A stretch of 52,706 nucleotides of DNA, from positions 1 to 52,706 of the forward strand of contig MFSE01000006.1 of NCBI GenBank assembly GCA_001784805.1. The letters run 5' to 3'. The translations under genes and the position numbers were made by a program. Of the stretch, positions 11,694 through 36,720 are shown piece by piece. Each line of letters starts with the position of its first letter. The stretch's first letter is position 1. The notes beneath the pieces were generated by a model. The model was given only the letters and a program-made list of their open reading frames with translations, was not told where the DNA came from and ran no database searches. The stretch is from Candidatus Moranbacteria bacterium RIFOXYA12_FULL_35_19. Its GTDB lineage: Bacteria; Patescibacteriota; Minisyncoccia; Moranbacterales; UBA2206.

Positions 11694-14312
11694 TTATAAT
11701 TTTGCTATGTTTTTTAATAATTCTTTTTGACTTTTTATTTTTTCTCTGTATTCATTTAGTTTAATCTTATTATTTCCCACAACTTCCCTTGGTGCGCTGG
11801 CAAGGAAATTTTTGTTATTTAAGAGACCTTCGGTTTTTGAAATCAACTTTTCTAAGTTTATAATTTCTTTTTCCAAATTTTTCTTTTCTTTCTCGACATC
11901 AATTGATTCGATTATATCTAAATTTAAACTTGATACTTTGATTGATTTACTTTTTGTTTTTTCAGAAGAGATACTAACTCGCGCTAATTTTTCAATAATT
12001 TCCTTATTTGAAATTTTATTACTATATGCATTAATTATTTTCCCAGGATCAATATGATAGCTCGATCGGATATTTCTAATCTTGCCAATCATTTCTTGCA
12101 ATTCTCGAAATTCTTTCTCTGTTTTTTTATCAATTAATTTCTTGGAAGCTTCTGGCCACTTCTCAACCATTAGCAACTTCCTAAGGTTCAACCTTTGGCT
12201 AGCCAAAGGTTGAACCTTAGGAAGGATGGCATCACCATATATTTTTTCCGTCACAAACGGCATAAATGGATGCCACAGTTTCAAAATTTTATCGATCACA
12301 TATCCCAAAACTTTATCATTTTTTTCGAGTTTATGAATTTCAAGATACCATGAAGCTAATTCATCCCAAGTGAATTTAATAAGAATGTTTTCCGCCATGG
12401 CAATGTTTTTATTTTCCAACATTTTTGATGCCCCAAAAATTGCCTCATTAGCTCGCGAAACAATCCATTGATCAGCCAAGCTTTTAATATCTTTTTTAGA
12501 AATTTTTTCCACCAATTCAAATTTATCACTTGAGCTAAAACTATAACGATAGATATTCCAAAGTTTGGTCACAAAATTTCGATATTTTTCTATTTTTTCT
12601 TCATAGAGTCGCGTGTCTAATCCGGGAGTTGTGTCAGTAATAAGACTCATGCGAAGCGCATCCGCTCCATACTTCTCAATCATTGCTAATGGATCAACGC
12701 CATTGCCTTTAGATTTTGACATCTTTTGACCATCCTTGTCGCGAATCAGTCCCGTAAAAAATAAATTCTTAAATGGCACTTTACCGGTTCGATATAGCCC
12801 CATCATAATCATCTTAGAAGCCCAGAAAAAAAGCAGGTCGCGTCCCGTAACCATCATTTCAGTTGAATAAAAATCTTTATAGTCTTTGCCTTTTGGATAG
12901 CCCAAAGTTATGTATGGCCATTGAGCGGAAGAAAACCAAGTGTCAAAAGTATCCGAGTCTTGCATCAATTTTGTTCCCTTGCATTTTGGACAATTTTTTG
13001 GCTTTTCAATTGAAACAATATATTTTTCTTCTCCGCATTTTTCACAATACCAAACTGGAATTTGCGGTCCCCACCAAATTTGGCGCGAAATACACCAATC
13101 ATGCAAACCAGAAAACCAACCTGTCATTATTTTTCCAAAACTTTTTGGATAAATTTCAATCTTCCCTGTTTTGATCGCTTTTAAGGATTCTTTTTTTAGA
13201 GAATATTTTTTCGCATCCACATTCACAAACCATTGCTTGGAAATCAAAGGTTCAATCGTTTCCTTGCAACGCTCACAAACTGATTTATTGATTTCATTTT
13301 CTTCTATTTTTTCAATGAGGCCGAGCTTGGTCAAATCGCGTACAATATTTTCCCGTGCCTCTTCAACTTTTTGACCGACATATTTTCCGCCTAATTTTGT
13401 AATCTGCGCTTTTTCATTAATCACTTGAATTTCTTGGAGTTTATGATCTTTGCCAATTTGCCAGTCTAGCGGATCATGAGCTGGGGTAATTTTCACCGCG
13501 CCTGTACCAAATTCCATTTCCATTCTTCTATCGGAAATGATTGGAATTTCTCGATTTTGCAAAGGTAAAATAACAATTTTTCCCACTAATTTTTCAAAGC
13601 GTTTATCTTTTGGATTAACTGCCACGGCCGTGTCACCCAGCATTGTTTCTGGTCTTGTGGTCGCAACTGTAATAAACTGTTTAGAATCTTTCAGTGGATA
13701 TTTTATGTAATACAACCTTCCTGCTGTTTTTTTATGAAGCACTTCCACATCCGAAAGTGCAGTGGCACATCTAGGGCACCAGTTGATTATTCTTTCTCCG
13801 CGATAAATCATTCCGTCTTTTTCCATCTTGACAAAAGTCTCAAGCGCCCGAGAAAGAACGTCCGGATCAAGCGTGAATTTTTCTCGCGACCAATCCGCGC
13901 TGATACCGATTTTCTTTTCTTGCGCGCGCATATAATTTGACCTATCAATACAAAAGTCATAAATCTCCTTGTAGAATTTTTCTCGCCCTAAATCATATCG
14001 AGAAATCCCCCGTTCTGCTTTGATTTTTTTTTCATAAACTACTTGTGATTGAATTCCGGCGTGGTCTTTTCCTGGGAAAAGCAAAACTTTCTCCCCTTTC
14101 ATGCGGTGATAACGTCCAAAAATATCCATCACGGTGTAACCTGAAGCATGTCCAAGATGAAGCTCTCCATTAGCATTCGGTGGTGGCAAAATATTGCAAT
14201 ATTTTTTCTTGGATTTTATCTTGTCCGGACTAAAAAAACCACTCTCCTCCCAGAGCTTATATATCTCATCCTCATATTTATTCGCTTCGTATGTTTTTAA
14301 GATCTCTTTCAT
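11694..14312 (-). CDS. valS: Valyl-tRNA synthetase
   Basis: PPPNANGELHLGH, DWCISRQIWWG, KMSKSKGN, C-terminal coiled coil; start probably MKEILK. Confidence 0.97.
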   Translation of the reverse strand: MKEILKTYEANKYEDEIYKLWEESGFFSPDKIKSKKKYCNILPPPNANGELHLGHASGYTVMDIFGRYHRMKGEKVLLFPGKDHAGIQSQVVYEKKIKAERGISRYDLGREKFYKEIYDFCIDRSNYMRAQEKKIGISADWSREKFTLDPDVLSRALETFVKMEKDGMIYRGERIINWCPRCATALSDVEVLHKKTAGRLYYIKYPLKDSKQFITVATTRPETMLGDTAVAVNPKDKRFEKLVGKIVILPLQNREIPIISDRRMEMEFGTGAVKITPAHDPLDWQIGKDHKLQEIQVINEKAQITKLGGKYVGQKVEEARENIVRDLTKLGLIEKIEENEINKSVCERCKETIEPLISKQWFVNVDAKKYSLKKESLKAIKTGKIEIYPKSFGKIMTGWFSGLHDWCISRQIWWGPQIPVWYCEKCGEEKYIVSIEKPKNCPKCKGTKLMQDSDTFDTWFSSAQWPYITLGYPKGKDYKDFYSTEMMVTGRDLLFFWASKMIMMGLYRTGKVPFKNLFFTGLIRDKDGQKMSKSKGNGVDPLAMIEKYGADALRMSLITDTTPGLDTRLYEEKIEKYRNFVTKLWNIYRYSFSSSDKFELVEKISKKDIKSLADQWIVSRANEAIFGASKMLENKNIAMAENILIKFTWDELASWYLEIHKLEKNDKVLGYVIDKILKLWHPFMPFVTEKIYGDAILPKVQPLASQRLNLRKLLMVEKWPEASKKLIDKKTEKEFRELQEMIGKIRNIRSSYHIDPGKIINAYSNKISNKEIIEKLARVSISSEKTKSKSIKVSSLNLDIIESIDVEKEKKNLEKEIINLEKLISKTEGLLNNKNFLASAPREVVGNNKIKLNEYREKIKSQKELLKNIAKL
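12177..12224. repeat. 48-bp perfect palindrome in frame in valS
   Basis: CTTCCTAAGGTTCAACCTTTGGCT|AGCCAAAGGTTGAACCTTAGGAAG encodes LPKVQPLASQRLNLRK; identical at 31964-32011. Confidence 0.97.
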
Positions 14313-14314
14313 GA

Positions 14315-14932
14315 TTAAATACAACTCAATGATTCATTGAACTTAATAATATCGGTTAAGTTGTTGTTATAGTGTTTATTATTCATTACAACGCAATAAT
14401 CTGTACCGCACCCAGTAAAAACAAAAGTTCCCGTATCATGCTCGTTACATATTTTTAAATTATAAATATTTTCATTATCTGATTCTCTGTAATAATAAAT
14501 GTCTGTACACATACCCCAAAAACACTTTTTTGATAAATTGGTATTATATCTTTCTTTTATTTCTTCTAATTTTTTAGGGTATTTGCCTGTGTCATACTTA
14601 TACCGTTCAATATCTGAGATTATATCACTAAACTGCTTACCATATCCTTGTTTAATGATAAAATTCTTTTTTAAATTCATTACGCCTTTGCTTGCTATAT
14701 TTAAAATCACAAACATTAATATTAATATTCCAGAAGTTAAAATTATTTTAAGTCCAATAAATTTATTATAAAATACAAATATAATGCCAAAGATAAAGAG
14801 CAAAATTGAAAGCACTAACAAAAGCCATGTAAAAACAATTACATGCACATCAAAAGATTCTAATATAAAAAGAAAAAATAATAATACAATTACTAAAATA
14901 CTTAATATATTATCTAATAAAAATTTTTTCAT
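14315..14932 (-). CDS. Hypothetical membrane protein, very AT-rich
   Basis: Three TM segments, then a Cys-containing soluble domain. Confidence 0.7.
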   Translation of the reverse strand: MKKFLLDNILSILVIVLLFFLFILESFDVHVIVFTWLLLVLSILLFIFGIIFVFYNKFIGLKIILTSGILILMFVILNIASKGVMNLKKNFIIKQGYGKQFSDIISDIERYKYDTGKYPKKLEEIKERYNTNLSKKCFWGMCTDIYYYRESDNENIYNLKICNEHDTGTFVFTGCGTDYCVVMNNKHYNNNLTDIIKFNESLSCI

Positions 14933-14950
14933 TTTTATTTATACTAATAA

Positions 14951-17488
14951 TTATTTTCTCACCTCTACTTTCAATTCTTTTTCCAAGTCTGTAATAACTT
15001 TTTCCATCACCTCATCTACTTCTCTACTTTCCAATGTTCGTTCACTGGCTCCAAATTCAATATGATAAGCAAAACTGGTTTGATTGTCTTTTTTGAAAAC
15101 ATCAAACATATCCACCTTCATCACTAAGTTTCCGCCAACTTTTTTTATGATATTTTGAATATCAATCGCTCTGGTTTCACCTTTGGCAAGCATTGAAATA
15201 TCGCGAATAACCGTTGGAAATTTTTGAAGAGGCAAAAATATTTTCTGTTTTTCTGCCACCCTCATAAGCTTTTCAGTATCAAACTCACAAACTGCCACTC
15301 TTTTTTCAATTTTATACTTCTTGAGTGTCAGCGGATTAATTTCTCCAATCATTCCAATCTTTTCATTATTCACAATAATTTCCGCATTGCGCACCGGATG
15401 AGTCAGATGATTTTTTGGAAGATTTTTTTCCTTATATAAAATATTATCCTCCCCTATTCCTAAATTTTCCAATAAACTTTGAACTGTGCCTTTTAGATTA
15501 TAAAATGTTTCCGCGCCCTTATCCTTTTCCAAAACTTGCGCCATCACGAGCATTCTTTTTTCTTCTGTTCCTGTCATTCCGAACTCGTTTCGGAATCCAG
15601 ATCCTGAAACAAGTTCAGGATGACAAGAGTAAACTTTGCCGATTTCAAAAATATTAAAACTTTCAAAAATATTTATATTTGTTTTGACATTTTTCAAAAT
15701 ATTTGGTACCAGGCTAACTCGAACATATCTTTGATCAGGATTCATTGGACTAGAAAGTTCAAAATGCTTTACCCCGTGGACTACCGCCTTTGGCGGTTGT
15801 TGCAAAGCAACATAGTCCATGGGGTGAATACCATCCAAGGCGCAATTCTTAGTGTCAATCTCGGAATAGAAAGAATAATTATACATTTCATCAAAGCCAA
15901 AACCAACTGCAATTTCTCCAAGTTTTCTTTCAAAAGACAAAACTTCATTTATTTTGGCAGGTATAACTGGCTCAACAAGTGGAAGAGGTTTAATTTTTTC
16001 ATATCCCCAAATCCGTCCAATCTCTTCAATCAAATCTTCTTGAGTTTTGAGATCAACTCTAAATGTAGGAATAGTACACACTACCTTATATGGTTGAATA
16101 GTAGTGTTGATTCCTAATAAATTTAATATTCTTGTTATTTCTTTTTTTGGAATTATTTCTCCCAAAAGAGAGTTTACATATTCCAAATCTAATTTTATTT
16201 TGCAAGGCTTGATTTTATTTGGATAAATATCAATTACTCCTTCGAACTCTGCGCCAGCAGTGTGTTCCAAAACTTCTATGATTCTGACAATGGCTTTTTC
16301 CGCTAAATTTGGATCAATCTCTTTTTCAAAACGATCAGATGATTCAGTTTTCACGCCCAGTCTTGTTCTTGAGCGTCTGATATTGACGGCATCAAAATTA
16401 GCGGCTTCCAAAATTATTGTCTTGGTATTTTCATTTATGCCTGAATCTTTTCCACCCATAATTCCAGCCAGTGCCAACGGAGTTTCGCCATTAGTAATAA
16501 GCAAATCAGAATTATTCAATTCTAAAATTGATTCGTCCAATAAAACTAATTTTTCTTTATCCTTTGCTCTTCTGATAATAATTTGTAGTTTATTTTTGCT
16601 TGAAATTTTTTCTGCGTCAAAAGCGTGCATTGGTTGCCCAAGTTCCAACATCACATAATTTGTCGCGTCAACTACATTATTAATCGGACGAATTCCTGAA
16701 GCCTCCAATCTTTGTTTCATCCAACTTGGCGAATCTTTAATTTCTACATTTTCCATTACTGCGCCAATATAGCGAGAGCATAGCTTCTTGTCCTCAATTC
16801 GCACTCGTAGAGACGCAAAATTTTGCGTCTTTACACAAGGCAACTTAAGTCCATCAAAATCATATTCAAATTTCCTATTTTCTAAAACTGAAATTTCCCT
16901 CGCCACACCAACATGACTGGTTGCATCGTGCGCTCGATCCGGCAAAACCTTTATTTCAAAAATTGTATCATCTTCCACGCCTAAATATTTTTTAGCTGGC
17001 TCGCCAATTTTAGCTTTAGAATCCAAAATAAAAATTCCGCTATGATCAGTTCCGAGCCCCAGCTCGTCCAATGCGCAAAGCATACCAAAAGATTTTTCCC
17101 CGCGAATTTCCGCCTCCTTTATCTCTATTCCGTTTGGAAGCTTTGTTCCTGCTGTCGCTACTGGAACTTTATCCCCAACTGCAATATTTTTTGCCCCGCA
17201 AACAATATCCAAAACCCCCTCTCCTTTATAAGGAGAAGGTTGCCCGCCTGCCGGCGAGGCAGGGGGTGAGGTGTGTTTCCCGATATCAATTTTTGTCAAT
17301 TGCAACTTATCCGCATTAGGATGTTTTTTGATTTCCAAAATCTTCCCCACCACCACTCCATCAAAATTCCATTTTTTTTCTTCCATCCCCTCAATTTCTA
17401 ACGAATGCATCGTCAAAAGCTCCCTCACTTTTTCCGGGGATAATTTTGTACCTGATAATTCCTTTAGCCAATTATATGAATATTTCAT
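14951..17488 (-). CDS. pheT: Phenylalanyl-tRNA synthetase beta subunit, with four in-frame palindromic inserts
   Basis: MKYSYNWLKE, HPNADKL, NNVVDATNYVMLELGQPMHAFD, EDLIEEIGRIWGY. Confidence 0.97.
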   Translation of the reverse strand: MKYSYNWLKELSGTKLSPEKVRELLTMHSLEIEGMEEKKWNFDGVVVGKILEIKKHPNADKLQLTKIDIGKHTSPPASPAGGQPSPYKGEGVLDIVCGAKNIAVGDKVPVATAGTKLPNGIEIKEAEIRGEKSFGMLCALDELGLGTDHSGIFILDSKAKIGEPAKKYLGVEDDTIFEIKVLPDRAHDATSHVGVAREISVLENRKFEYDFDGLKLPCVKTQNFASLRVRIEDKKLCSRYIGAVMENVEIKDSPSWMKQRLEASGIRPINNVVDATNYVMLELGQPMHAFDAEKISSKNKLQIIIRRAKDKEKLVLLDESILELNNSDLLITNGETPLALAGIMGGKDSGINENTKTIILEAANFDAVNIRRSRTRLGVKTESSDRFEKEIDPNLAEKAIVRIIEVLEHTAGAEFEGVIDIYPNKIKPCKIKLDLEYVNSLLGEIIPKKEITRILNLLGINTTIQPYKVVCTIPTFRVDLKTQEDLIEEIGRIWGYEKIKPLPLVEPVIPAKINEVLSFERKLGEIAVGFGFDEMYNYSFYSEIDTKNCALDGIHPMDYVALQQPPKAVVHGVKHFELSSPMNPDQRYVRVSLVPNILKNVKTNINIFESFNIFEIGKVYSCHPELVSGSGFRNEFGMTGTEEKRMLVMAQVLEKDKGAETFYNLKGTVQSLLENLGIGEDNILYKEKNLPKNHLTHPVRNAEIIVNNEKIGMIGEINPLTLKKYKIEKRVAVCEFDTEKLMRVAEKQKIFLPLQKFPTVIRDISMLAKGETRAIDIQNIIKKVGGNLVMKVDMFDVFKKDNQTSFAYHIEFGASERTLESREVDEVMEKVITDLEKELKVEVRK
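15572..15625. repeat. 54-bp TGTCAT...ATGACA double-hairpin element in frame in pheT
   Basis: Encodes CHPELVSGSGFRNEFGMT; the 27 bp at 15599-15625 are identical to 26676-26702. Confidence 0.92.
15768..15828. repeat. Branched palindrome in frame in pheT
   Basis: TTTACCCCGTGGACTA/TAGTCCATGGGGTGAA stem enclosing hairpins ACCGCCTTTGGCGGT and TGTTGCAAAGCAACA. Confidence 0.85.
16807..16834. repeat. GTAG-type REP-like palindrome in frame in pheT
   Basis: GTAGAGACGCAAAATTTTGCGTCTTTAC, 28 bp with one mismatch; encodes VKTQNFASL. Confidence 0.85.
17215..17272. repeat. CCCCTCTCCT..AGGAGA..GGGTGAGG element with nested 21-mer, in frame in pheT
   Basis: GC-rich insert encoding TSPPASPAGGQPSPYKGEG between KLQLTKIDIG and IVCGAKN. 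Confidence 0.85.
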
Positions 17489-17494
17489 GTCTTT

Positions 17495-17950
17495 CTTTAC
17501 TAATTACTAATTTTATTACTAATATACTAATCCTCTAAATTTACAATTCTTTTATATCTCACACATTCTTTTGTAAAATAAACGAGTATACCTAATCTTA
17601 AATTCATCGCTTTTAAATAAGAATATAACTGATCGATATCTCTTTTTGAAAAATAATTCTTACTTTTTAATTCAATAACTATTTTATCAAAAACTAAAAA
17701 ATCAAAAATATAATAACCGATTTCTTTTCCTCTATGTTTAACTTTTGCTTTTAATTGTTCTTTAAATTCTATATTATTTTCTGAAAAAATATTTGCAACA
17801 GCTTTCTGATAAAAACTTTCTTTATGTCCATATCCAATTTCATTAAAAATACTAAAAATCAAACCAATAATCTTATAACATTCATCCTTATAAATTAAAT
17901 CATTTCTTATACTCATTAGTATATTTGTATATGATTAGTAATTAGTAAAG
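17495..17950. mobile_element. Inverted-repeat-flanked GxxExxY module between pheS and pheT
   Basis: Perfect 17-bp IR CTTTACTAATTACTAAT (17495-17511) / ATTAGTAATTAGTAAAG (17934-17950), plus further TACTAAT units. Confidence 0.65.
17527..17916 (-). CDS. GxxExxY protein (PD-(D/E)xK nuclease fold)
   Basis: GHKESFY motif, then FDFLVFDKIVIELKS..QLYSYLK. Confidence 0.9.
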   Translation of the reverse strand: MSIRNDLIYKDECYKIIGLIFSIFNEIGYGHKESFYQKAVANIFSENNIEFKEQLKAKVKHRGKEIGYYIFDFLVFDKIVIELKSKNYFSKRDIDQLYSYLKAMNLRLGILVYFTKECVRYKRIVNLED

Positions 17951-17956
17951 ACCTAG

Positions 17957-19012
17957 CTAAAATTGTTTAACAAACCTTAAATCTCCCGAATGAAACAATC
18001 TCACATCATCAATCTTATATCTCGTCATTGCGAGTCGTTCCAGTCCAAATCCCCACGCAAATCCCTGATATTTATTTCTTGGGTACCCCGCGGAAACAAA
18101 AACATTTTGGTTGACCATCCCGGCACCACCAAGTTCTAGCCAACCCGCCCACTTACAAGCCTTGCAACCCTTTCCGCCACAAACCGTGCAAGAAATATCA
18201 AATTCAAAACTTGGTTCTGTAAATGGAAAATAACTTGGACGCAGTCGCACATCCACATCTTGTTTGAAAAAAGCGGAAAAAAATTCTTTGGCAGTAAATT
18301 TCAAATTTCCTACATTCACATCCTCTCCTACAATCAAAGCTTCAAACTGATAGAAAGTATGCTCGTGAGTTGTGTCCGTAGCTTCACGACGAAAACATTT
18401 CCCTGGGACAATAATTCGAAGTGGTGGTTTATTTTTCTCCATATACCTAGCCTGCACCGCTGAAGTTTGACTTCGCATAGAAAAATTGTCCGCGTCTTTC
18501 CGCGTTCCGTCCGCGTTTGTCTGCGAGCGAAGCCAAAAAGTATCTTGCATATCGCGCGCCGGATGATCTTTGGGAATATTCAAGGCATCAAAATTATACC
18601 ATTCATTTTCAATTTCCGGACCATCAGCAATTTCATAGCCCATTGAAGTAAAAACATCTTCAATGTCACGACGCACCAGCGAAATTGGATTGAAGTGTCC
18701 TACACTTTTTTTCTTTCCGGGAATTGTCACATCAATTTTTTCTTTTTCCGCGTCAAAACTCCCACTTTCAATTTCAGTCTTTTTGTTTTTTATTATTTCA
18801 AAAATTTCATTTTTCGTGTTATTGGCTAATTCTCCAATTTGCCTTCTTTCTTCCGGTGTTAAATTTTTTAGATTTTTGAGAATAGAAATAAATTCGCTCT
18901 TTCTACCAACATATCTTTTTTCCAATTCAAAAAGAGCCTCCTCACTTGGCTTAATTTTCTCAATTTCCGCCAAAAACTGCTTCTTCAAATTTTCAATTTT
19001 TTCCTTTAACAT
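17957..19012 (-). CDS. pheS: Phenylalanyl-tRNA synthetase alpha subunit
   Basis: NFDALNIPKDHPARDMQDTF, RLRPSYFPFTEPS, FAWGFGLERL; start probably MLKEKI. Confidence 0.97.
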   Translation of the reverse strand: MLKEKIENLKKQFLAEIEKIKPSEEALFELEKRYVGRKSEFISILKNLKNLTPEERRQIGELANNTKNEIFEIIKNKKTEIESGSFDAEKEKIDVTIPGKKKSVGHFNPISLVRRDIEDVFTSMGYEIADGPEIENEWYNFDALNIPKDHPARDMQDTFWLRSQTNADGTRKDADNFSMRSQTSAVQARYMEKNKPPLRIIVPGKCFRREATDTTHEHTFYQFEALIVGEDVNVGNLKFTAKEFFSAFFKQDVDVRLRPSYFPFTEPSFEFDISCTVCGGKGCKACKWAGWLELGGAGMVNQNVFVSAGYPRNKYQGFAWGFGLERLAMTRYKIDDVRLFHSGDLRFVKQF

Positions 19013-19018
19013 AACCGT

Positions 19019-19158
19019 TGTCATTCCCGCGTAGGCGGGAATCTAGTCTCGAATTTATCTTAAAATTCAAGAATATTTTTATATACTATTTTTTCATTTA
19101 GCCTCTACACTGGATTCCCGTTTTCCTACCTCGCCGGCAGGCGGGCACGGGAATGACA
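19019..19158. repeat. TGTCATTCCC..GGGAAT (dRS3-like) miniature element upstream of pheS
   Basis: ATTCCC-N8-GGGAAT left arm; right arm GGATTCCCGTTTT[21-mer]CACGGGAATGACA; first 29 bp identical to 28690-28718. Confidence 0.88.
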
Positions 19159-19261
19159 ATTATATCGACATTTATATTCTAAGCTAAAAAAAGGCTTTTT
19201 GCAAACTAATAAAAAACTAGAATTAGGCGGGAGTTGGGCATCTCCCGCTAAAATATTAGGT

Positions 19262-19432: not shown

Positions 19433-19485
19433 AGTATCCCTCCTTTTTTGATTTTTTCGCCCAATTCTAATTTTTTATTCAATTT

Positions 19486-19725: not shown

Positions 19726-19734
19726 AGTAATTCC

Positions 19735-19835
19735 CTACAAAATTACAAAATTTTACAAAAATACAAATATACAAAATGTTGTTTTTTCATTTTTTGTACT
19801 TTTGTATTTTTGTATTTATTTTGTACTTTTGTAGT
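19735..19835. repeat. TACAAAA-heptad inverted-repeat element overlapping the secF stop
   Basis: (TACAAAA)n arm then (TTTTGTA)n arm. Confidence 0.75.
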
Positions 19836-20724
19836 TTATTTGTAATTTATAACTCGTAACTAATAACGCCGAGGCGATAAAAATTGAAGAATATGTTCCA
19901 AAGAAAACTCCAATCAAAAGCGCCAAAGAAAAATCTCGAATTGTTGCTCCGCCAAAAATAAATACCGCCAGAAGAGTAATCAGAACAGTAAGTGAAGTAT
20001 TTACTGATCGAACCAAAGTTTCATTCAAACTTCTGTTTACTATATCCGGAAAAGTTTCCTTATTGGAACTTCTAAGTAAATTTTCCCGCGTTCGATCATA
20101 TACTACAATTGTATCATGCACTGAAAAACCTAAAATAGTAAGCAAAGCCGCTATAAAAGGAATCCCGACTTCTATCCCATAAAAATGTCCCAGCACAGAA
20201 AAAGCTCCCGTTGTTATAAGAATATCATGAACAAGGGCAATCACTGCCCCAATGCCATATTTCCAAGAAGCCACCGGTCGAGAAACCTTTCGAAAGGCCC
20301 AAGCAATATAAGCTAAAATTCCCGCAACTGCCCAAAATATCGCCCATAGAGATTTTGATTTCAATTCATTGGAAACTGAAGCATTAGCATAATCTACCCT
20401 AAGCTCCTTAGAATTTGGATATTTTTCGCTTATTTTTTTGAAAACATTTTGATTTATTGTATCATCCTCTGACGCATAGCGGATAAGGGCGGAGTTATTT
20501 TGCGTTGACTGAATCGTCAAGCTTTTCAGATTTAGATCCTTTAATGTTTCTTCAATTTCTTGATTAGCTGGAATACTATTTTCAAAACTAACTTCCATCA
20601 ATGTTCCGCCAGTAAAATCAATTCCGAATTTTAGTCCCCACACAAAAAGACTAACAACACTCAATATAGTAAGTGTTATTGAAAAAATATAAGCGTATTT
20701 AGTTTTGGAAATAATATTAATCAT
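19816..20724 (-). CDS. secF: Protein translocase subunit SecF
   Basis: GLKFGIDFTGG, LTILGFSVHDTIVVYDRTRE, GTYSSIFIA; start moved to 20724 because the longer start lies in a repeat. Confidence 0.96.
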   Translation of the reverse strand: MINIISKTKYAYIFSITLTILSVVSLFVWGLKFGIDFTGGTLMEVSFENSIPANQEIEETLKDLNLKSLTIQSTQNNSALIRYASEDDTINQNVFKKISEKYPNSKELRVDYANASVSNELKSKSLWAIFWAVAGILAYIAWAFRKVSRPVASWKYGIGAVIALVHDILITTGAFSVLGHFYGIEVGIPFIAALLTILGFSVHDTIVVYDRTRENLLRSSNKETFPDIVNRSLNETLVRSVNTSLTVLITLLAVFIFGGATIRDFSLALLIGVFFGTYSSIFIASALLVTSYKLQINYKSTK

Positions 20725-20730
20725 AATTTT

Positions 20731-20809
20731 TGTCATTGCGAAGGAGCGTAGCGACTGTGGCAATCTCGTAATTTAATTCTGAGATTGCTTCGCTTCACTC
20801 GCAATGACA
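20731..20809. repeat. TGTCATTGCG...CGCAATGACA double-hairpin element at the secD/secF junction
   Basis: Terminal IR plus internal GCAATCTC/GAGATTGC; contains the secD stop codon. Confidence 0.88.
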
Positions 20810-22524
20810 GATTTTTTTACTCCTATTAACCACATTTTATTCTCCAACCATTCCCCCATCACAAATCGTAAAATTGTTCTGGTAATAACTACGGCGGTAA
20901 ACATAGAAAGCAAAACTCCGATGATAAGCGTCACTGCGAAACCTTTCACAAATCCCGTACCCATTTCCATCAAAATAAAAGCTGTGATAATGGAAGACAT
21001 ATTTCCATCGCGAATAGAAGTCCACGCCCGCTTGAAACCTTCTTCAATGGCACCCAAAACATTTCGGCCTCTTCTAATTTCTTCCTTGGTTCTTTCAAAA
21101 ATCAAAATATTAGCATCCACCGCCATTCCGATCGAAAGAATAAATCCGGCAATACCAGGGAGAGTAAGGGTTATCTGCCAAGGCGAGAAAAAAGAAAGTT
21201 TGAAAATTGAAATCATCATTCCAGCATAAATAATCAGAGAAAAAGAAGCAATAAGACCCAAAAATCTATAATACAAAAGCATAAAGACAATTACCAAAAT
21301 CATTCCGATCATTCCCGCTTTCAAACTTTTTTCCAAAGATATTTGACCCAAAGATGCCTCCACGCTTTGTTGAGAAATCAAATTTATCGGCACTGGAAGC
21401 GCGCCTTCATTAAGCCTTTTGACTAAATCTTTTGCTTCTTCAGTTGAAAAATTTCCAGTAATAACTGCTTCTCCATTAGTTATCTCGGCCTGAACTGTTG
21501 GCGCGCTGATTATTTGATTATCAATATAAATCGCTACTTGTTTTTGTAAATTTCTTTTTGTAATTTCCGCAAATAATTTTGTGCCTTCATCATCAAATTT
21601 CAAAGATACCTCCGGTTCAGAAAGTCCTTGGTTTTGAAACTGAACACTCGCATTTTTCAAGTTTTTTCCGGAAAGTCCAGTAGGAATAAATTCTTTCTTT
21701 GGCTCTGGATTAACTTTTTTTGCAATCAAAATATGAGCACTTTTAAATTCTTGACTGTCGCCCTCGCCCCCGCCTCGCGTCGACGAGTCGTCTTCGCGAG
21801 TCGAGGCGGGTTTAACTTCAATTCTTTTTATTATATGCCAGCCAAAATCAGTTTCCACCAACTCTTTGTATATTTCGCCGTCTTTCAAATTTTTGTTAAA
21901 AATTACATCTTCATATTCTGGTACAAAAGAGCCTTTTTTGACAAAATCATATTCTCCACCATTATCTTTTGACCCAGGATCTTCACTATTATTTTTCGCC
22001 AATTCTCCAAAATCTTCACCCGCTAAAGCTTTTTTTAGTAAATCTTGAGCTTTCTTTTTCGCCTCCTCATTCGCCTTTTTCAATTCTTCTTCTGGAATTT
22101 TTTCCACTGCTTCTTCCTTTTCTTCCTTAAACTCCAAAAGTGGAGTGGCCTTGATCATATCTTTCGCTTGATTTATATCTTTCACTCCGGCTAGCTCTAC
22201 AACCAATCTATTTTCTGTGCCAGATTTTGTCGTATAAACAATCGGCTCCGCTACACCAAAAGCGTTGACGCGTCTTTCGATCACATCTTGCACCGCCTCC
22301 ATCGCTTCGCCAATTTTTCCGCTTTCAATTTGAGTAACATCCGCTTTATATTCCAAATGAATTCCGCCTTGCAAATCTAAGCCTAAATTGATTTTGGCCT
22401 TGTTTAGAGCATTATAAACCGGTGAGATTTTCGAAACCGCCTTTGGATAGGAAACCAACCCCGCAAAAATTGCCAAGATTATTACCGCCCCAAATTTTAG
22501 TCTAAGTTTTTGTCTAACATTCAT
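20773..22524 (-). CDS. secD: Protein translocase subunit SecD with an inserted parvulin-type PPIase domain
   Basis: INLGLDLQGG, RRVNAFGVAEP, GMAVDANILIFER; insert has EDFGELAKNNSEDPGSKDNGG..FGWHII..SAHILI. Confidence 0.95.
   Translation of the reverse strand: MNVRQKLRLKFGAVIILAIFAGLVSYPKAVSKISPVYNALNKAKINLGLDLQGGIHLEYKADVTQIESGKIGEAMEAVQDVIERRVNAFGVAEPIVYTTKSGTENRLVVELAGVKDINQAKDMIKATPLLEFKEEKEEAVEKIPEEELKKANEEAKKKAQDLLKKALAGEDFGELAKNNSEDPGSKDNGGEYDFVKKGSFVPEYEDVIFNKNLKDGEIYKELVETDFGWHIIKRIEVKPASTREDDSSTRGGGEGDSQEFKSAHILIAKKVNPEPKKEFIPTGLSGKNLKNASVQFQNQGLSEPEVSLKFDDEGTKLFAEITKRNLQKQVAIYIDNQIISAPTVQAEITNGEAVITGNFSTEEAKDLVKRLNEGALPVPINLISQQSVEASLGQISLEKSLKAGMIGMILVIVFMLLYYRFLGLIASFSLIIYAGMMISIFKLSFFSPWQITLTLPGIAGFILSIGMAVDANILIFERTKEEIRRGRNVLGAIEEGFKRAWTSIRDGNMSSIITAFILMEMGTGFVKGFAVTLIIGVLLSMFTAVVITRTILRFVMGEWLENKMWLIGVKKSVIASEAKQSQN
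21769..21810. repeat. 42-bp CCCGCCTCG...CGAGGCGGG element in frame in secD
   Basis: Exactly 14 codons, PASTREDDSSTRGG; 9-bp terminal IR. Confidence 0.9.
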
Positions 22525-26623: not shown

Positions 26624-26635
26624 AAATAAAAAACT

Positions 26636-26702
26636 TGTCATGCTGAATTTATTTCAGCATCTCAAGTAAATTCCTAGATCCTGAAACAAGTTCAGGATGA
26701 CA
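26636..26702. repeat. TGTCAT...ATGACA double-hairpin element upstream of secA
   Basis: TGTCATGCTGAATTTATTTCAGCATCT...AGATCCTGAAACAAGTTCAGGATGACA; right arm identical to the pheT insert. Confidence 0.9.
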
Positions 26703-27602: not shown

Positions 27603-27605
27603 ATT

Positions 27606-28689: not shown

Positions 28690-28819
28690 TGTCATTCCCG
28701 CGTAGGCGGGAATCTAGTTTTAAAGTTTTATTTATTGCAAAGACTCAAATGTTTTGCAAGGCTTCTGCACTGAATCCCCGCAGGAGTTTATGCTCGCGAA
28801 AGCGGGTGCGAGGATGACA
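28690..28819. repeat. dRS3-like miniature element after hpf
   Basis: TGTCATTCCCGCGTAGGCGGGAATCTAGT identical to 19019-19047; ends GGATGACA. Confidence 0.88.
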
Positions 28820-28824
28820 TAGTA

Positions 28825-29190
28825 TTAGAACCTTGCGTCTTTACTAATCACAATTTTTTTCTTAAGCGAGCGAGCTCCGCGTTCGCGGATATCTTTGAGC
28901 TTGCTTTTATCCTTAGTGATTTGTTTTTGTAATTCTTCAATGACCATATCCGTTGAACCTTCCACACTTTCAGAAATTTCTGTCGCTCGATATAATTTGT
29001 ACGGAGTTTTGATCATCACTTCTACATAAAATTTTCCTTTTTTATCCATTGAAATTTCCACTTCGTATTCCAAGGATTTTTTCAAAAATTTTTCCATCTT
29101 CTGAATTCTTTTCATAATATAATCCTTGGTGCGATCATCTAACTTGACATTCTTGCAAAATAAACGAAGATTGAGAATTGTGTTTGGCAT
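28825..29190 (-). CDS. hpf: Ribosome hibernation factor HPF/RaiA family
   Basis: KNVKLDDRTKDYIMKRIQKMEKF..D..IEELQKQI; usual position upstream of secA. Confidence 0.78.
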   Translation of the reverse strand: MPNTILNLRLFCKNVKLDDRTKDYIMKRIQKMEKFLKKSLEYEVEISMDKKGKFYVEVMIKTPYKLYRATEISESVEGSTDMVIEELQKQITKDKSKLKDIRERGARSLKKKIVISKDARF

Positions 29191-29220
29191 ATAATTTAAT
29201 TTAAATTAATTAGCTTATAT

Positions 29221-29334
29221 TCCTTACAAATTACGAACTTTTACGAATGTACCAATGTGAATTAAAAATAATTTTTATTTTTTATTTAATTATTTGCAAT
29301 TCGTACATTCGTACCAATTCGTAATTCGTAAGGA
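29221..29334. repeat. TACGAA-heptad inverted-repeat element between murB and hpf
   Basis: TCCTTACAAATTACGAA ... TTCGTAATTCGTAAGGA. Confidence 0.8.
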
Positions 29335-29337
29335 TTA

Positions 29338-30291
29338 CTAGAAGCCCACATATTGCACTTCTTCTTGAAGTTGCACGCCCAACTCATCGCGCACTTTCAT
29401 TTTGATAACACTAGAAAGCATCACAATATCCTGCGCTTTAGCATTGCCTACATTTACTACAAAATTAGCATGCTTTTCGCTCACTGCAGCACCCCCAATT
29501 TTTTTCCCGCGTAGCCCAACCTCGTCTATCAGCCAGCCAGCCGGAATTTTTGAATCTATTGCCTTCTGGCCAGTGTCTTTTTCAAAACGATTAATCAATT
29601 CCTGATTTTCCACCTTTGGATTCTTGAAAAAACTTCCAGAACTTGGTTTTTTAGGATTTGGATGAACTGTATCAGAGCGTTTCTTGATAATTTCTTTTAT
29701 TTTATTATTTATTTCTTCCTGATCGCCCTTTTCTAATTTCAAAACAGCCGAAATTATAATCAGATCTTTATTTTCTTTGAAAATGCTATTGCGATATGCA
29801 AACTTACATTCACTTTTCCTAAGGTTCAACCTTTGGCTAACCAAAGGTTGAACCTTTATGACTTCCACGCTTTCCGCATTATCCGCCATGCAACCCAACG
29901 GTATCCCAGCATTTCCCCGAATCGCTCCACCAACTGTTCCAGGAATTCCCGATGCCCATTCAAGTCCGGAAAGTGAATTTTGCATTGCTAAATTAACAAC
30001 TGAGCTCAAAGAGGCACCGGCAGAAACTTCAATTTTATTTTCTTGTATCTTGTATCTTGCGTCTTGTATCTTGATTACTAATCCATCAAATCCATCGTCG
30101 CTTATAAGAATATTACTCCCTCCGCCCAGCACAAAAATTTCCAAATTATTTTCTTTGGCAAATTGCAAAGCCTCAAGAAGCGCCTCTTCGTCGCTCACTT
30201 CTACAAAGTATTTCGCCGGTCCACCGATTTTGAAAGTAGTCAACGGCGCAAGAGAAATATTTTTTTGGATTTTTAAAATTGGCATAAACAA
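29338..30291 (-). CDS. murB: UDP-N-acetylenolpyruvoylglucosamine reductase
   Basis: TTFKIGGPA, LGGGSN, GIPGTVGGAIRGNAG, SGSFFKNP, KHANF. Confidence 0.96.
   Translation of the reverse strand: MFMPILKIQKNISLAPLTTFKIGGPAKYFVEVSDEEALLEALQFAKENNLEIFVLGGGSNILISDDGFDGLVIKIQDARYKIQENKIEVSAGASLSSVVNLAMQNSLSGLEWASGIPGTVGGAIRGNAGIPLGCMADNAESVEVIKVQPLVSQRLNLRKSECKFAYRNSIFKENKDLIIISAVLKLEKGDQEEINNKIKEIIKKRSDTVHPNPKKPSSGSFFKNPKVENQELINRFEKDTGQKAIDSKIPAGWLIDEVGLRGKKIGGAAVSEKHANFVVNVGNAKAQDIVMLSSVIKMKVRDELGVQLQEEVQYVGF
29816..29856. repeat. Truncated copy of the valS/RAYT palindrome in frame in murB
   Basis: TTCCTAAGGTTCAACCTTTGGCTAACCAAAGGTTGAACCTT, one mismatch; encodes KVQPLVSQRLNLRK. Confidence 0.95.
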
Positions 30292-30363
30292 ATATTAAAA
30301 AATTTACAACTTAATTTTCAAAATATTTCGATTGTAAATATTTTTATTTTTTAGCATTCTATT

Positions 30364-31509: not shown

Positions 31510-31525
31510 AAAATATTTTTATAAT

Positions 31526-32197
31526 TTATTCTAAAATATATTCTTCTAATTCTTTCTTATCCTTAAAATAATCAGCATTATTTTTTATATACTTTTCGTA
31601 TTCATCAAAATTATTATCAAACTGCCCCAAAATAATTTCTTTGTTACATAACTTTCCCTCTCTCTTCCCAGTATAATCCAAAAAGCTGGAATATGGCCAA
31701 TCCTTTTCCGAAAACCCATGAATTTCGTGATTAACATTCACATAGGCCGAAAGCAAAAGAAGATATTCGTTGGAGTCGATGTGGATGGATTTAAATCTTC
31801 CCTGAAAAAGAGCTCCTGAACGTTTGGTTTTTTTATTAAAATACATAGTATAACTAGTACCGACTTTTTGCATAAATTTAACTATGCCATTATTTTGCTC
31901 TTGTTTTACTATAAAATGATAGTGATTAGGGTTAAGACAATAAGCAATAATAGAAACGATTGGCTTCCTAAGGTTCAACCTTTGGCTAGCCAAAGGTTGA
32001 ACCTTAGGAAGCTCTGCTATTCCATTTTTATGTAAATCTCTCCATATCAACATCAATCCATCTTTTTCATCATTCAACAAACTCATCCCCAAAATAAACC
32101 TCTCATAATCTTTCTTATCCAAAAACACCTCCCGCTTATCTACTCCACGGTTATATATGTGGTAATATTCACCATTGGCAAATTCAGTTTTTCGCAT
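31526..32197 (-). CDS. REP-associated tyrosine transposase (RAYT, Y1 HUH family)
   Basis: YYHIYNRG, AYCLNPNHYHF, YFNKK..RSGALFQGRF, Y.N.N, WPYSS. Confidence 0.9.
   Translation of the reverse strand: MRKTEFANGEYYHIYNRGVDKREVFLDKKDYERFILGMSLLNDEKDGLMLIWRDLHKNGIAELPKVQPLASQRLNLRKPIVSIIAYCLNPNHYHFIVKQEQNNGIVKFMQKVGTSYTMYFNKKTKRSGALFQGRFKSIHIDSNEYLLLLSAYVNVNHEIHGFSEKDWPYSSFLDYTGKREGKLCNKEIILGQFDNNFDEYEKYIKNNADYFKDKKELEEYILE
31963..32012. repeat. 50-bp perfect palindrome inside the RAYT ORF
   Basis: Contains the 48-mer found in valS. Confidence 0.97.
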
Positions 32198-32204
32198 TTA
32201 TTTT

Positions 32205-33587
32205 TTATTTTTCATTTAATTTCTCGGCGACTTCCCAGCCGTTACCGGCACCGATGGCGATGACAACATCTTCACTTCCGATTTTATCTCGCAAAAATTC
32301 CACTGCTTCATCAATCGTTTTTATATATTGCGCCTTGTCTCGATCGTATTTATTGATCAAATCAACTAAATCTTTGGAGCTTATTTTTCCAAAATTTTCT
32401 CGAGCCGAGCCATAAATATCCAAAATGATCACCTGATTAGCATCAGAAAATGATTGTGAAAATTCTTGCAAAAGCGCTTCTGTTCTAGAATAGGAATGTG
32501 GATGAAAAACCGCCCAAATATTTTTCTGCGGATAAATTTCTCGTGCACCCTTAAGTGTTGCCTTAATTTCCTCTGGATGATGTCCATAATCATCAATCAA
32601 AATTGCACCATTTCTTTCCCCGATATATTCAAATCTCCTTTTGGTTCCACTAAAACTAGCTAGTCCTTCTTTTATTTTCTCTAAATCTAAATTCAATTTA
32701 TGGCAAGTTGCTATAACCGCGCAAGCATTCAAAACATTATGTTTTCCTGTTAATTGAATTTCAAAAACTCCTAAACTTTTATCGCTATAACTAACTTCAA
32801 AAAATTGTTTTAGATTTTGTAATTTGTAATTTGTAATTTTATAATTATTCTCCTCATTGAATCCATAAGTCAAAACTTGACACTTTGCTTCTTTCGAAAC
32901 TTCCAGAGTATCCACACTGTCTCCCCAAACTACCAAAAATCCGGTTTTTGGAATACGCGCTACGAAATCTTTAAAAGCTTTTTTATAATCGGCAAAATTT
33001 GGAAAAGTGTCAGGATGATCAAAATCCAAACTGGTTAATACAATCGCTTTTGGATTATATAATTTTAATTTATTTTGAAATTCATCCGTTTCTGCCACAA
33101 AAAACTCCCCTTTCCCGCTAAGTGCATTACCCTCCCAATTTATAACTCGGCTTCCAATCACTGCGCTCGGATCAACTCCAATTTCTTTTAATGTATGTGC
33201 TAACATTGCCGAAGTTGTCGTCTTGCCATGCGTTCCGCAAACTGCAATCCCATATTTCTCATTAAAAAGTTCGGCTAAAATTTCCGGATAGCTAATCATC
33301 TCCAAATTTCTTTTTTTCGCTTCTTGAAATTCAATATTATTATTTTCATTATACGCCGTGGAATAAATTACCAGATCCGTATCTGCTGGAATATTTTCTG
33401 GAGAAAATTTTTCAAAATATTGAATGCTTAATTTTTGCAAAATCTCATCAGTGAAAAATTTTTCATTCGTATCCGAACCTGTTATTTCAATTCCCATGGA
33501 ATGCAAAATTTCCACCACCGCAATCACGCCGGAACCCTTAATACCAATTATATAAGCTTTTTTAAGATTATTTAAATTAATTGACAT
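32205..33587 (-). CDS. murC: UDP-N-acetylmuramate-L-alanine ligase
   Basis: IIGIKGSG, GTHGKTTT, GTKRRFE, DDYGHHPEEI. Confidence 0.95.
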   Translation of the reverse strand: MSINLNNLKKAYIIGIKGSGVIAVVEILHSMGIEITGSDTNEKFFTDEILQKLSIQYFEKFSPENIPADTDLVIYSTAYNENNNIEFQEAKKRNLEMISYPEILAELFNEKYGIAVCGTHGKTTTSAMLAHTLKEIGVDPSAVIGSRVINWEGNALSGKGEFFVAETDEFQNKLKLYNPKAIVLTSLDFDHPDTFPNFADYKKAFKDFVARIPKTGFLVVWGDSVDTLEVSKEAKCQVLTYGFNEENNYKITNYKLQNLKQFFEVSYSDKSLGVFEIQLTGKHNVLNACAVIATCHKLNLDLEKIKEGLASFSGTKRRFEYIGERNGAILIDDYGHHPEEIKATLKGAREIYPQKNIWAVFHPHSYSRTEALLQEFSQSFSDANQVIILDIYGSARENFGKISSKDLVDLINKYDRDKAQYIKTIDEAVEFLRDKIGSEDVVIAIGAGNGWEVAEKLNEK

Positions 33588-33592
33588 ATAAA

Positions 33593-33692
33593 TAATTTTT
33601 AATTTGAAGTTTTTAATTTTTAATCAATTTTAAATTTATAAATTTTCAAAATAAAAATTCAATAAAAAATTTTAAATTAAAAATTAAAAATT
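33593..33692. repeat. AT-rich heptad inverted repeat between murG and murC
   Basis: (TTTTAAT)n arm then (ATTAAAA)n arm filling the intergenic gap. Confidence 0.55.
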
Positions 33693-34792: not shown

Positions 34793-34816
34793 AATTTTAG
34801 TTTTAAATTATATTTG

Positions 34817-35920: not shown

Positions 35921-35985
35921 AAAATATAAATATCGAGATTGTTTTTGTTCGCCAGCTGGCGAATTAGAAAATTATAATTTCATAT

Positions 35986-36720
35986 TTATTTATAATTTGA
36001 TGCTTTGAATTTTGAATTTTTCTTTCTCCATTCTTCTATTTTTTTATGATTTCCTGACAATAAAACTTTTGGCACTTTCCAATTCAAAAATTTTTCCGGC
36101 TTAGTATATTGTGAATGTTCTAAATAATTCTTGCTATTATGCGATTCGTTTTTGGTACTTTCGCTATTTCCCAAAACCCCCGGTAATAATCTAGAAATCG
36201 AATCTACTAAAATCATTGCGGGAATTTCTCCACCCGTAAGAACAAAATCGCCAACGGAAATTTCTTCGTCCGCTAAATATTTCGCCACCCTTTCATCCAC
36301 ACCCTCATAGCGTCCGCAAATAAAAATTAAATTGTCATATTTTGACAAACGCTTAGCATCACTTTGGGTATATTTTTTCCCTTTGGCTGAAAATAAAATA
36401 GTCCTGATTTTTTGTTTTGAATTTGAAATTTTAGATTTGAAATTTACCTGCCTGCCGGTAGGCAAGGTTTGAGATTTGAGATTTGTAATTTGTAATTTTA
36501 TTACATTTATAGCTCTATGAATGGGTTCAATCTTCATCACCATTCCCGCTCCGCCTCCATACGGCGTGTCATCAGTTGTTTTATGTTTATCCAGGGTAAA
36601 ATCACGAAGATTATGAATTTTAATTTCAATTAAATTATTTTTTTGTGCCCGTTTCAAAATCGACTCATTGAAATATGAACCAAAAATTTCTGGAAAAATT
36701 GTAATAATATCAAACTTCAT
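35986..36720 (-). CDS. trmD: tRNA (guanine-N1)-methyltransferase
   Basis: MKFDIITIFPE, DDTPYGGGAGMV, CGRYEGVDER, GDFVLTGGE; start 36720. Confidence 0.96.
   Translation of the reverse strand: MKFDIITIFPEIFGSYFNESILKRAQKNNLIEIKIHNLRDFTLDKHKTTDDTPYGGGAGMVMKIEPIHRAINVIKLQITNLKSQTLPTGRQVNFKSKISNSKQKIRTILFSAKGKKYTQSDAKRLSKYDNLIFICGRYEGVDERVAKYLADEEISVGDFVLTGGEIPAMILVDSISRLLPGVLGNSESTKNESHNSKNYLEHSQYTKPEKFLNWKVPKVLLSGNHKKIEEWRKKNSKFKASNYK

Follow-up and report, generated by a model that had tools for sequence, protein, structure and literature searches.

Rickettsia palindromic elements (RPEs) are about 150 bp long, fall into ten families and in many cases lie in frame within protein genes, as the accessible part of PMC10969869 describes them. 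Repetitive extragenic palindromes (REPs) have likewise been found inside genes in several species, tRNA synthetase genes included (Di Nocera et al. 2013, PMC3733652); according to the available text of that source, one genome can hold several REP families, and the genes for REP-associated tyrosine transposases (RAYTs) are flanked by REPs, which both it and bioRxiv 10.1101/119735 place in flanking extragenic space or overlapping gene ends. Here we analyse a 52,706-bp contig (C6; the window is this whole contig) of Candidatus Moranbacteria bacterium RIFOXYA12_FULL_35_19, a member of the candidate phyla radiation (CPR), in which short hairpins and tandem arrays lie in frame within valS, pheT, pheS, secD, secA, murB, murC and trmD. 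The genome under study (G000; C-numbers are its contigs, other G-numbers its relatives) is a draft of 988,700 bp in 32 contigs with approximately 35% G+C.

We propose, with a probability of roughly 0.68, that the inserts are REP/REPIN-like hairpin transposons that move as single strands and have been filtered by selection to copies that keep the frame and contain no stop. They would be copies of many short non-autonomous hairpin families of the REP/REPIN kind, most likely moved as single-stranded DNA that is cut and joined by RAYT-like HUH tyrosine transposases, and this would extend to families that have no RAYT of their own. They would land without duplicating the target, in many cases where another hairpin leaves its tip unpaired. 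Many insertions would hit genes because the genome is 87% coding, and the genic copies that persist would be those with lengths divisible by three (3n) and no stop in the frame used, placed in tolerant, probably surface, loops; being in frame, stop-free and tolerated, they would be translated as extra peptides. At least three families are paired with a RAYT gene that bears the cognate palindrome in a predicted disordered loop just before the HUH motif.

A preliminary description of this DNA likened the inserts to RPEs, and the likeness held: they are in-frame palindromes in conserved genes and are missing from orthologs. As with RPEs, a small genome has several palindrome families whose copies lie in frame within conserved genes that are unrelated to one another (PMC10969869 and PMC3733652, in their accessible parts), and RPEs presumably add tolerated peptide segments, as the inserts may do here. 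The elements are likened by description and not by sequence, and at 21–60 bp those described here are shorter than the RPE length given in PMC10969869. The CPR host, nesting at hairpin tips and a RAYT link for some families are further differences, whereas the accessible text on RPEs names no transposase. REP/REPIN-RAYT systems (PMC3733652; Bertels and colleagues, bioRxiv 10.1101/119735; both in their available portions) share with the present elements short palindromes, single or in inverted doublets, multiple families, and a single-copy, vertically inherited RAYT at a fixed locus. Classical REPs lie mostly outside genes and border the RAYT gene, whereas here about half of the loci are in open reading frames (ORFs) and the cognate palindrome is inside the RAYT gene. 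Also unlike classical REPs, families here have 2–29 loci and 3n lengths, and no GTAG or CGTC tag was seen at the ends of the families called F48, Fgc and the 21-nt element below. The likeness to IS200/IS605 TnpA (HUH Y1) enzymes would consist in a predicted fold match, the lack of target duplication and an apparent preference for unpaired hairpin tips; unlike IS200/IS605 elements, those described here are gene-less, and no conserved tetranucleotide target was found for them. In filamentous cyanobacteria, very small dispersed repeats of approximately 20–30 nt are reported by Elhai and colleagues (2008) to nest and to extend hairpins; these repeats are not known to lie in frame in core genes or to be linked to a RAYT.

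Literature searches on CPR, Parcubacteria and Patescibacteria returned no account of such in-frame palindromes, which is not proof of absence, and no description of an in-frame REPIN inside a RAYT was found in the accessible parts of the literature. The kind of phenomenon is already in print for other bacteria (PMC3733652, available text). Apparently new are the CPR host, the position of a repeat inside the RAYT gene and the 3n lengths; the small elements, tip nesting, high ORF share and a class of heptamer arrays are further differences from the known kind.

Inserts in core genes are absent from close orthologs

We compared orthologous loci from eight same-genus genomes and more distant relatives in protein and codon alignments. 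Same-genus orthologs are 72–89% identical, yet they show clean in-frame gaps at 11 inserts of the genome under study: one in valS, four in pheT, one each in pheS and secD, two in secA, and one each in murC and trmD. Across nine gene alignments there are 67 lineage-specific inserts of at least 5 amino acids, and 40 of these contain a stem of at least 7 bp; among control segments of matched length, drawn from the genes in question, the count is 58 of 335 (the hairpin score allows one mismatch and a loop of up to 14 nt, and under-scores Fgc, whose outer stem surrounds a 24-nt structured loop). Those lacking such a stem are mostly short-period tandem arrays. The inserts in the window are as follows.

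12177–12224, no strand assigned: F48 in valS, a REPIN-like doublet in frame, coding LPKVQPLASQRLNLRK
17213–17275, minus strand: pheT insert 1, a composite of the 21-nt hairpin CCCGCCTGCCGGCGAGGCAGG beside a CCTTCTCCTTATAAAGGAGAGGG hairpin
16808–16831, minus strand: pheT insert 2, a AGACGCAAAATTTTGCGTCT palindrome, coding TQNFASL
15776–15832, minus strand: pheT insert 3, a hairpin of 57 nt that encloses a CCGCC-AAA-GGCGG hairpin and codes GIHPMDYVALQQPPKAVVH
15566–15628, minus strand: pheT insert 4, a two-hairpin doublet with TGTCAT...ATGACA ends, coding SCHPELVSGSGFRNEFGMTGT
18494–18514, minus strand: pheS insert of +21 bp, three ACGCGGA-like heptamers
21769–21810, minus strand: secD insert, a 42-nt GC-rich hairpin (Fgc), coding PASTREDDSSTRGG
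25925–25966, minus strand: secA insert 1, 42 nt, heptamer-like, with no clear palindrome
24017–24078, minus strand: secA insert 2, a period-7 array of TTGTTCA-like units in the C-terminal region (Tandem Repeats Finder, TRF)
29815–29862, minus strand: partial or decayed F48 copy in murB, coding KVQPLVSQRLNLRK
30041–30073, minus strand: second murB site, an in-frame heptamer array of TACAAGA-like units
32816–32841, minus strand: murC insert, TTTGTAA repeated 3.4 times, coding TNYKLQN (+7 amino acids)
about 36416–36498, minus strand: trmD insert, a heptamer array, a CCTGCCTGCCGGTAGGCAGG hairpin and a second heptamer array, coding LQITNLKSQTLPTGRQVNFKSKISNS

F48 is a perfect 48-bp palindrome, made up of two 24-nt arms, at 12177–12224 and again at 31964–32011, with an 85% copy at 29815–29862. 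The valS copy is missing in four of six orthologs; the copy in G001 has diverged, and its arms are those of G001's own RAYT variant. Insert 1 of pheT is absent from eight same-genus orthologs, but G006 has its second half alone, which points to stepwise insertion. The palindrome of insert 2 lies in ORFs at all six of its loci in the genome and occupies a different pheT site in G008. Insert 3 is common to G004 and G007 and missing from the other 16 aligned orthologs, and insert 4 is present in G007, G008 and G005, missing from the remaining same-genus orthologs, and has an intergenic relative at 26676–26702. At the pheS insert four orthologs have a 21-nt gap and one has a longer gap. The Fgc site of secD is empty in three of five orthologs (G005, G007 and G017) and filled in G008 and G003; in G003 an Fgc hairpin also occupies the site of secA insert 1. 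At secA insert 2, G008 has an 8-amino-acid gap and G017 is 7 amino acids shorter (gaps of 1 and 6). The trmD insert, of about 26 amino acids, is missing from seven same-genus orthologs; in the predicted TrmD structure the insert (residues 81–100 of the protein) has a predicted local distance difference test score (pLDDT) below 50, in a model that is poor as a whole (mean 60).

The preliminary description had presented all of these as palindromic micro-elements that keep the reading frame of core genes. Insertion in frame stands for the 11 segments that are cleanly absent from orthologs; insertion as such does not carry over to murB, where ortholog lengths vary at the F48 site, a hot spot with other inserts in G008, G004, G006 and G002, and where the array at 30041–30073 makes no length difference relative to orthologs. 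The palindromic part is correct for valS, pheT and secD; the inserts in pheS, murC, secA and the second murB site are period-7 arrays. Its proposal that element peptides are added to core proteins agrees with the alignments, in which in-frame inserts that would code such peptides are absent from same-genus orthologs.

Relatives bear inserts of their own, such as PASTRGDDRSSTRGW in pheT of G003, PVNFAEAKHGAS in three pheT orthologs, and SAQGGSASGG in pheS of G007 and G017. Some of these fall on the same codons as inserts of the genome under study, which marks certain loops as hot spots. Conserved ancestral loops were considered and rejected, as the inserts are missing from orthologs. Related elements also lie outside or across the ends of genes in the window, and the doublet at 20729–20811 provides the final codons and stop of secD.

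19018–19159, no strand assigned: intergenic relatives lying upstream of pheS, one being a TTGTCATTCCCGCGTAGGCGGGAATCTAGT hairpin and the other a hairpin whose loop contains the 21-nt element
20729–20811, no strand assigned: hairpin doublet TGTCATTGC...GCAATGACA across the end of secD and the start of secF
26635–26702, no strand assigned: two TGTCAT-type hairpins that form an inverted doublet in the intergenic DNA upstream of secA

Element families follow coding compatibility

The elements belong to two classes, which are sometimes combined, as in the array-hairpin-array insert of trmD. Class 1 comprises GC-rich hairpins and palindromes of 21–60 bp, among them the 21-nt element CCCGCCTGCCGGCGAGGCAGG, the 42/45-nt Fgc, F48 and TGTCAT-type hairpins (27–30 nt with TGTCAT...ATC ends, often in inverted doublets). 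Class 2 comprises arrays of 7-nt units, such as ACGCGGA in pheS and TTTGTAA in murC; secA and murB have arrays of other units. We searched for recurrence with a GC-filtered k-mer scan and BLAST of element cores; the filter was needed because a k=14 scan without it was swamped by AT-rich low-complexity words. Clustering chained many of the families into a single group of 130 segments, as elements lie within or directly beside one another. The flagged motifs recur genome-wide at 6–29 loci each. From 16 seed motifs we obtained 191 merged loci, of which 92 are intergenic, 88 lie within ORFs and the remaining 11 fall at the edges of ORFs, in line with the proposal of several independent non-autonomous families. 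ORFs were called greedily as the longest available, giving 941 ORFs and 86.7% coding sequence. At least one element is present in 62 of the 941 ORFs and in 54 of the 593 ORFs of at least 200 amino acids. Relative to the coding share of 86.7%, elements are nevertheless depleted in ORFs (88 of 180 with edges excluded; binomial p 7e-34), which is what purifying selection would produce.

The share of loci in ORFs differs greatly among families: F48 9/9, Fpyk 12/12, Facgc 6/6, Fccgc 13/17, Fgc 14/29, the 21-nt element 10/27 and TGTCAT-type hairpins 0–4 of 11–16. This share follows coding compatibility. F48 is open in one of three phases; Fgc, the 21-nt element, Fttgg and Facgc are free of stops in all six phases, and the mostly intergenic TGTCAT families have stops in three or four of six. 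Fpyk is the exception, with all loci in ORFs despite a stop in two of six phases. A 3n length is shared by 14 of the 15 Fgc copies in ORFs and by 14 of the 16 intergenic ones, the lengths being 42 or 45 nt with one copy of 39 and another of 63 nt, and both shares are far above one third, although the copies share ancestry and binomial values for 3n therefore overstate their independence. The difference in length modulo three between coding and intergenic copies that had been proposed as a test is thus not found. Together with nested insertions of 21, 21 and 51 nt and the 48 nt of F48, the 3n lengths of intergenic Fgc copies indicate that 3n is a property of the elements and not only of survivors in genes. 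We also noted a 627-amino-acid ORF, C13:35235-37115, with six repeat loci of several families (CCCCTCTCC...GGAGAGGGG, TTGTTCCACGTGGAACA and CCGCC...GGCGG), which may be built of repeats or may be false.

Heptamer arrays are widespread. At a permissive TRF threshold there are 647 period-7 arrays genome-wide (288 intergenic, 68 at ORF edges and 291 in ORFs), with AAATACG and AATTACG the commonest units; TRF rows number 674 for period 7, 187 for period 5 and 268 for period 8. Several intergenic spacers of the window (7241–7341, 9570–9650, 11078–11188, 19734–19848 and 29218–29337) are inverted arrays of 7–8-nt units around a short centre, for example TACGAAA/TTTCGTA and TACAAAAT/TTTTGTAC; they may be terminators, element ends or slippage products.

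RAYT genes carry genome-specific palindromes

The genome under study has one IS200-like gene and four RAYT-like genes, whose products are 223–238 amino acids long. One of the latter lies in the window.

31526–32197, minus strand: RAYT-like Y1 HUH transposase gene (Y1_Tnp, IS200-like/RAYT), with F48 in frame at 31964–32011 in the loop before the HUH motif

Its product matches Pfam PF01797 with 32.9 bits against a cut-off of 23, and the residues of its N-x-N-H-x-H motif (N89, N91, H92 and H94) are invariant in 20 homologs. Among its conserved tyrosines, Y152, also invariant and in a predicted helix, is a candidate for the catalytic residue. The predicted structure has a mean pLDDT of 73.5, and its best fold match is 4er8_A (E 1.4e-4), a structure of the E. 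coli REP-associated tyrosine transposase in complex with a REP hairpin, followed by IS608 and IS200 TnpA. Searched by sequence against solved structures, the single protein gave one chance-level match and the profile none. F48 codes residues 62–77, and loop residues 61–73 have pLDDT below 50 and lie between a helix and the HUH strands. The RAYT gene is found between murB and murC in seven of nine genomes of the genus; it has an internal stop in G001 and is split over two contig ends in G008. In the latter, the end of contig C8 (149945–150319) and the start of contig C16 (93–239) mark an assembly break inside the syntenic gene, and the palindrome-loop region (approximately residues 50–98) is missing from both, which suggests that these repeats fragment CPR assemblies.

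Among 18 RAYT loci examined, a script found the HUH motif in 16 paralogs, and all 16 carry a perfect or near-perfect palindrome before it. Syntenic RAYT orthologs bear unrelated palindromes. We counted matches to one arm of each RAYT palindrome, with up to two mismatches, in five genomes.

G000 palindrome arm: 16 hits in G000, 0 in G003, 1 in G004, 4 in G006, 0 in G007
G003 palindrome arm: 0 hits in G000, 6 in G003, 0 in G004, 2 in G006, 0 in G007
G004 palindrome arm: 0 hits in G000, 0 in G003, 4 in G004, 0 in G006, 0 in G007
G006 palindrome arm: 0 hits in G000, 0 in G003, 0 in G004, 14 in G006, 0 in G007
G007 palindrome arm: 2 hits in G000, 0 in G003, 1 in G004, 1 in G006, 10 in G007

Hits on the diagonal (16, 6, 4, 14 and 10) compare with 0–4 off it, and reversed-pattern controls gave 0–1 per genome. 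The palindrome inside each genome's RAYT is therefore a dispersed family of that genome's own. G003 has a second copy of its RAYT palindrome in the adjoining murB, as G000 does with F48, and in G001 one arm variant, CGACC/GGTCG, is common to the RAYT palindrome and the valS copy. Among 117 RAYT homologs compared as proteins, 29 have a pre-HUH loop with at least five consecutive residue pairs that a palindrome could code, compared with 1 of 117 for a control region and 2 of 117 for shuffled loops, in a test that detects one of three phases. The RAYT genes of G000 differ in layout. The RAYT on C23 has its palindrome on both flanks (21484 and 22193) and twice inside, which makes up four of the seven loci of that family; the window RAYT has its sole copy inside the gene, with spacers of 16 and 7 nt; and the RAYT on C10 has a half copy of the GGAGGCTCAACCTCC family and a further doublet. 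The sole canonical IS200-like transposase gene is C24:7040-7498 (PF01797, E 1.3e-34). A copy of a CTCTCCC...GGGAGAG hairpin lies about 110 bp downstream of it, at 7607–7658, and this hairpin family may derive from the ends of the IS200-like gene.

We found no target-site duplication when comparing filled with empty sites of secD and secA, nor at the nested 21-nt and 51-nt insertions, and no conserved tetranucleotide target. The three nested insertions, of 21, 21 and 51 nt, lie in non-coding hairpins. By visual reading of flanks, at least 12 of the 27 listed copies of the 21-nt element lie in the middle of a further inverted repeat, the hosts being the loops of three TGTCAT-type hairpins, a AGACACTGGATGTC hairpin, a TTCCACGTGGAA palindrome and the inverted repeats of heptamer arrays. 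Landing at a tip without duplication would fit single-strand HUH transposition better than DDE transposition. Miniature inverted-repeat transposable elements of the DDE type, which combine terminal inverted repeats with target-site duplication, were rejected for lack of the duplication.

We tentatively suggest, at somewhat less than even odds, that each RAYT of this CPR clade keeps, within its coding sequence, a REPIN master copy in a disordered loop beside the active site and diversifies together with it between species, and that the repeats have become ORF-compatible parasites of very compact genomes (3n in length, stop-free and coding hydrophilic peptides) in about 1 in 11 of the larger proteins, among them essential ones.

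Weighing the explanations

Several observations weigh against hairpin transposition by RAYT-like enzymes. Four RAYT-like genes and one IS200-like gene face at least 12 families, and no matching RAYT loop was found in G000 for Fgc (29 loci), the 21-nt element (27 loci) or the TGTCAT group; the GTAG or CGTC tag is likewise missing from the ends of the families named above. The cognate families are small, with 2–9 loci per genome in the matrix, and the five matrix genomes are kin; palindromes could also persist in RAYT loops for reasons other than being substrates. The inserts in pheS, murC, secA and the second murB site, which lack hairpins, may arise by another process such as slippage. Around residue 680 of pheT, two palindrome families fill columns that in other orthologs hold AT-rich sequence of equal length; replacement without length change fits gene conversion or in-situ decay as well as it fits insertion, and the pattern could reflect decay, re-insertion or conversion. 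Finally, with a greedy ORF call in place of a trained gene finder, some copies counted as in ORFs may lie in false ones, C13:35235-37115 being an example.

Another explanation is that PD-(D/E)XK (GxxExxY) or GIY-YIG nucleases move or copy the hairpins by homing-like cutting and repair, with no part played by RAYTs. We consider this unlikely. The genome has seven PDDEXK_3 matches and nine small GIY-YIG ORFs, which is many for 1 Mb, and same-length palindrome replacement, as in pheT, fits repair-templated copying. The PDDEXK_3 genes look mobile. By visual reading of flanks, six of the seven lie beside heptamer arrays. One of them lies in the pheS-pheT spacer of the window.

17527–17916, minus strand: PD-(D/E)XK (PDDEXK_3) gene in the pheS-pheT spacer, flanked by TTACTAA heptamer arrays (Pfam)

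The 453-bp cassette formed by this gene and its arrays (window 17489–17956) is near identical in G000, G008, G003 and G002, while the genes around it are about 80–85% identical between genomes, so that it would appear to have spread recently; in G006 the spacer is 91 bp and holds an inverted array of TACAAAA-like units alone. Pattern matching resolved the pheS-pheT spacer at 7 of 12 loci, one of them a doubtful 3-nt spacer. A complete PDDEXK_3 domain (amino acids 86–198) also lies in frame in the GTPase domain of a 771-amino-acid lepA/EF4 ORF (C1:3142-5478; L079:264-2576), where its linkers are coded by heptamer-array-like sequence and the Pfam GTP_EFTU match is split in two around it.

However, neither PDDEXK_3 nor GIY-YIG genes are co-located with a hairpin family in G000, and the arrays beside PDDEXK_3 genes vary from copy to copy. 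Four GIY-YIG ORFs are direct neighbours of tRNA genes or of duplicated pieces of tRNA, and partial tRNA duplications flank them.

C31:11590-11847: tRNA-adjoining GIY-YIG ORF
C10:34649-34945: tRNA-adjoining GIY-YIG ORF
C7:48335-48688: tRNA-adjoining GIY-YIG ORF
C13:13959-14228: tRNA-adjoining GIY-YIG ORF

In two of these cases, for example downstream of C7:48335, a hairpin element lies in the T-loop of the duplicated tRNA piece. The genome-specific pairing was found with RAYTs. The preliminary description had suggested that each family may be tied to a small nuclease, naming RAYT, GxxExxY and GIY-YIG enzymes. The RAYT part applies to some families, as the matrix and the flanks of the C23 gene indicate, and not to most, no enzyme having been found in this genome for Fgc, the 21-nt element and the TGTCAT group; the part concerning GxxExxY and GIY-YIG genes is not supported, these genes lying beside heptamer arrays and tRNA genes, respectively.

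The palindromes might instead be functional modules selected by the host, either regulatory hairpins or peptide loops, that spread by recombination and are not selfish. Palindromes in RAYT loops are kept perfect with compensatory changes (CAACC/GGTTG in G000, CGACC/GGTCG in G001), the same sites are struck repeatedly, and a 16-mer arm of Fgc is present in 35 of the 121 genomes sampled from the order, which represent 30 of 68 genera and 11 of 12 families; the reversed control gave one match. This distribution implies that Fgc is ancient, has been transferred horizontally or is maintained by an enzyme that is itself conserved. Yet the inserts are patchy among close relatives, occur in unrelated proteins and are depleted in ORFs, the peptides they code vary with phase, and mutual nesting is typical of selfish repeats, so we regard host-selected modules as improbable.

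A little less probable still is that the inserts are never translated because the hairpins are removed from the transcript, or that the proteins are corrected afterwards. The strong hairpins could be recognised by RNases, and removable insertions in rRNA genes are known from CPR bacteria. Removal would make frame-keeping needless, yet nearly all ORF copies of Fgc are 3n, F48 is used only in its open phase (9/9), and few ORF copies belong to families with stops in many phases; we know of no precise RNA re-joining system for such hairpins.

Mis-joining of repeats into genes of a metagenome-assembled genome during assembly or binning is very improbable: the assembly is a 32-contig draft and a relative's contigs break inside the RAYT gene, but the same codons are filled in independent assemblies (secD Fgc in G008 and G003, pheT insert 3 in G004 and G007, pheT insert 4 in G007, G008 and G005), long ORFs stay open in all of them, and contigs of 11 public runs, six of them possibly from the source sample, contain at least half of the sampled pheT words.

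Gene content of the window

The public runs with pheT sequence are groundwater metagenomes. Nearly all genes of the window are on the minus strand, and the flagged stretch contains, besides the RAYT and PDDEXK_3 genes, the following genes together with murG and an FtsW/RodA-family gene (Pfam).

11694–14324: valS (Pfam)
14951–17488: pheT (Pfam)
17957–19024: pheS (Pfam)
19816–20763: secF (Pfam)
20773–22524: secD, with a peptidyl-prolyl isomerase (PPIase) domain (Pfam)
23927–26641: secA (Pfam)
29338–30291: murB (Pfam)
32205–33587: murC (Pfam)
35986–36771: trmD (PF01746)

Farther along the window, a 219-nt direct repeat with 83% identity (40701–40919 and 43119–43337) lies in two ORFs 2.4 kb apart; it is probably a mark of paralogous genes and unrelated to the hairpins.

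Implications

Palindromes that code for protein are best known from Rickettsia and are pervasive in a free-standing branch of the CPR as well, where aminoacyl-tRNA synthetases, Sec proteins, Mur enzymes and TrmD bear variable loops coded by repeats. This has consequences for the annotation and alignment of CPR proteins, for phylogenies derived from them, and for assembly, as contigs break at the repeats. The 3n lengths of intergenic copies suggest selection on the elements themselves for tolerance inside genes. In these uncultured organisms, a RAYT gene with its own in-frame repeat offers a naturally occurring enzyme-substrate pairing that can be tested.

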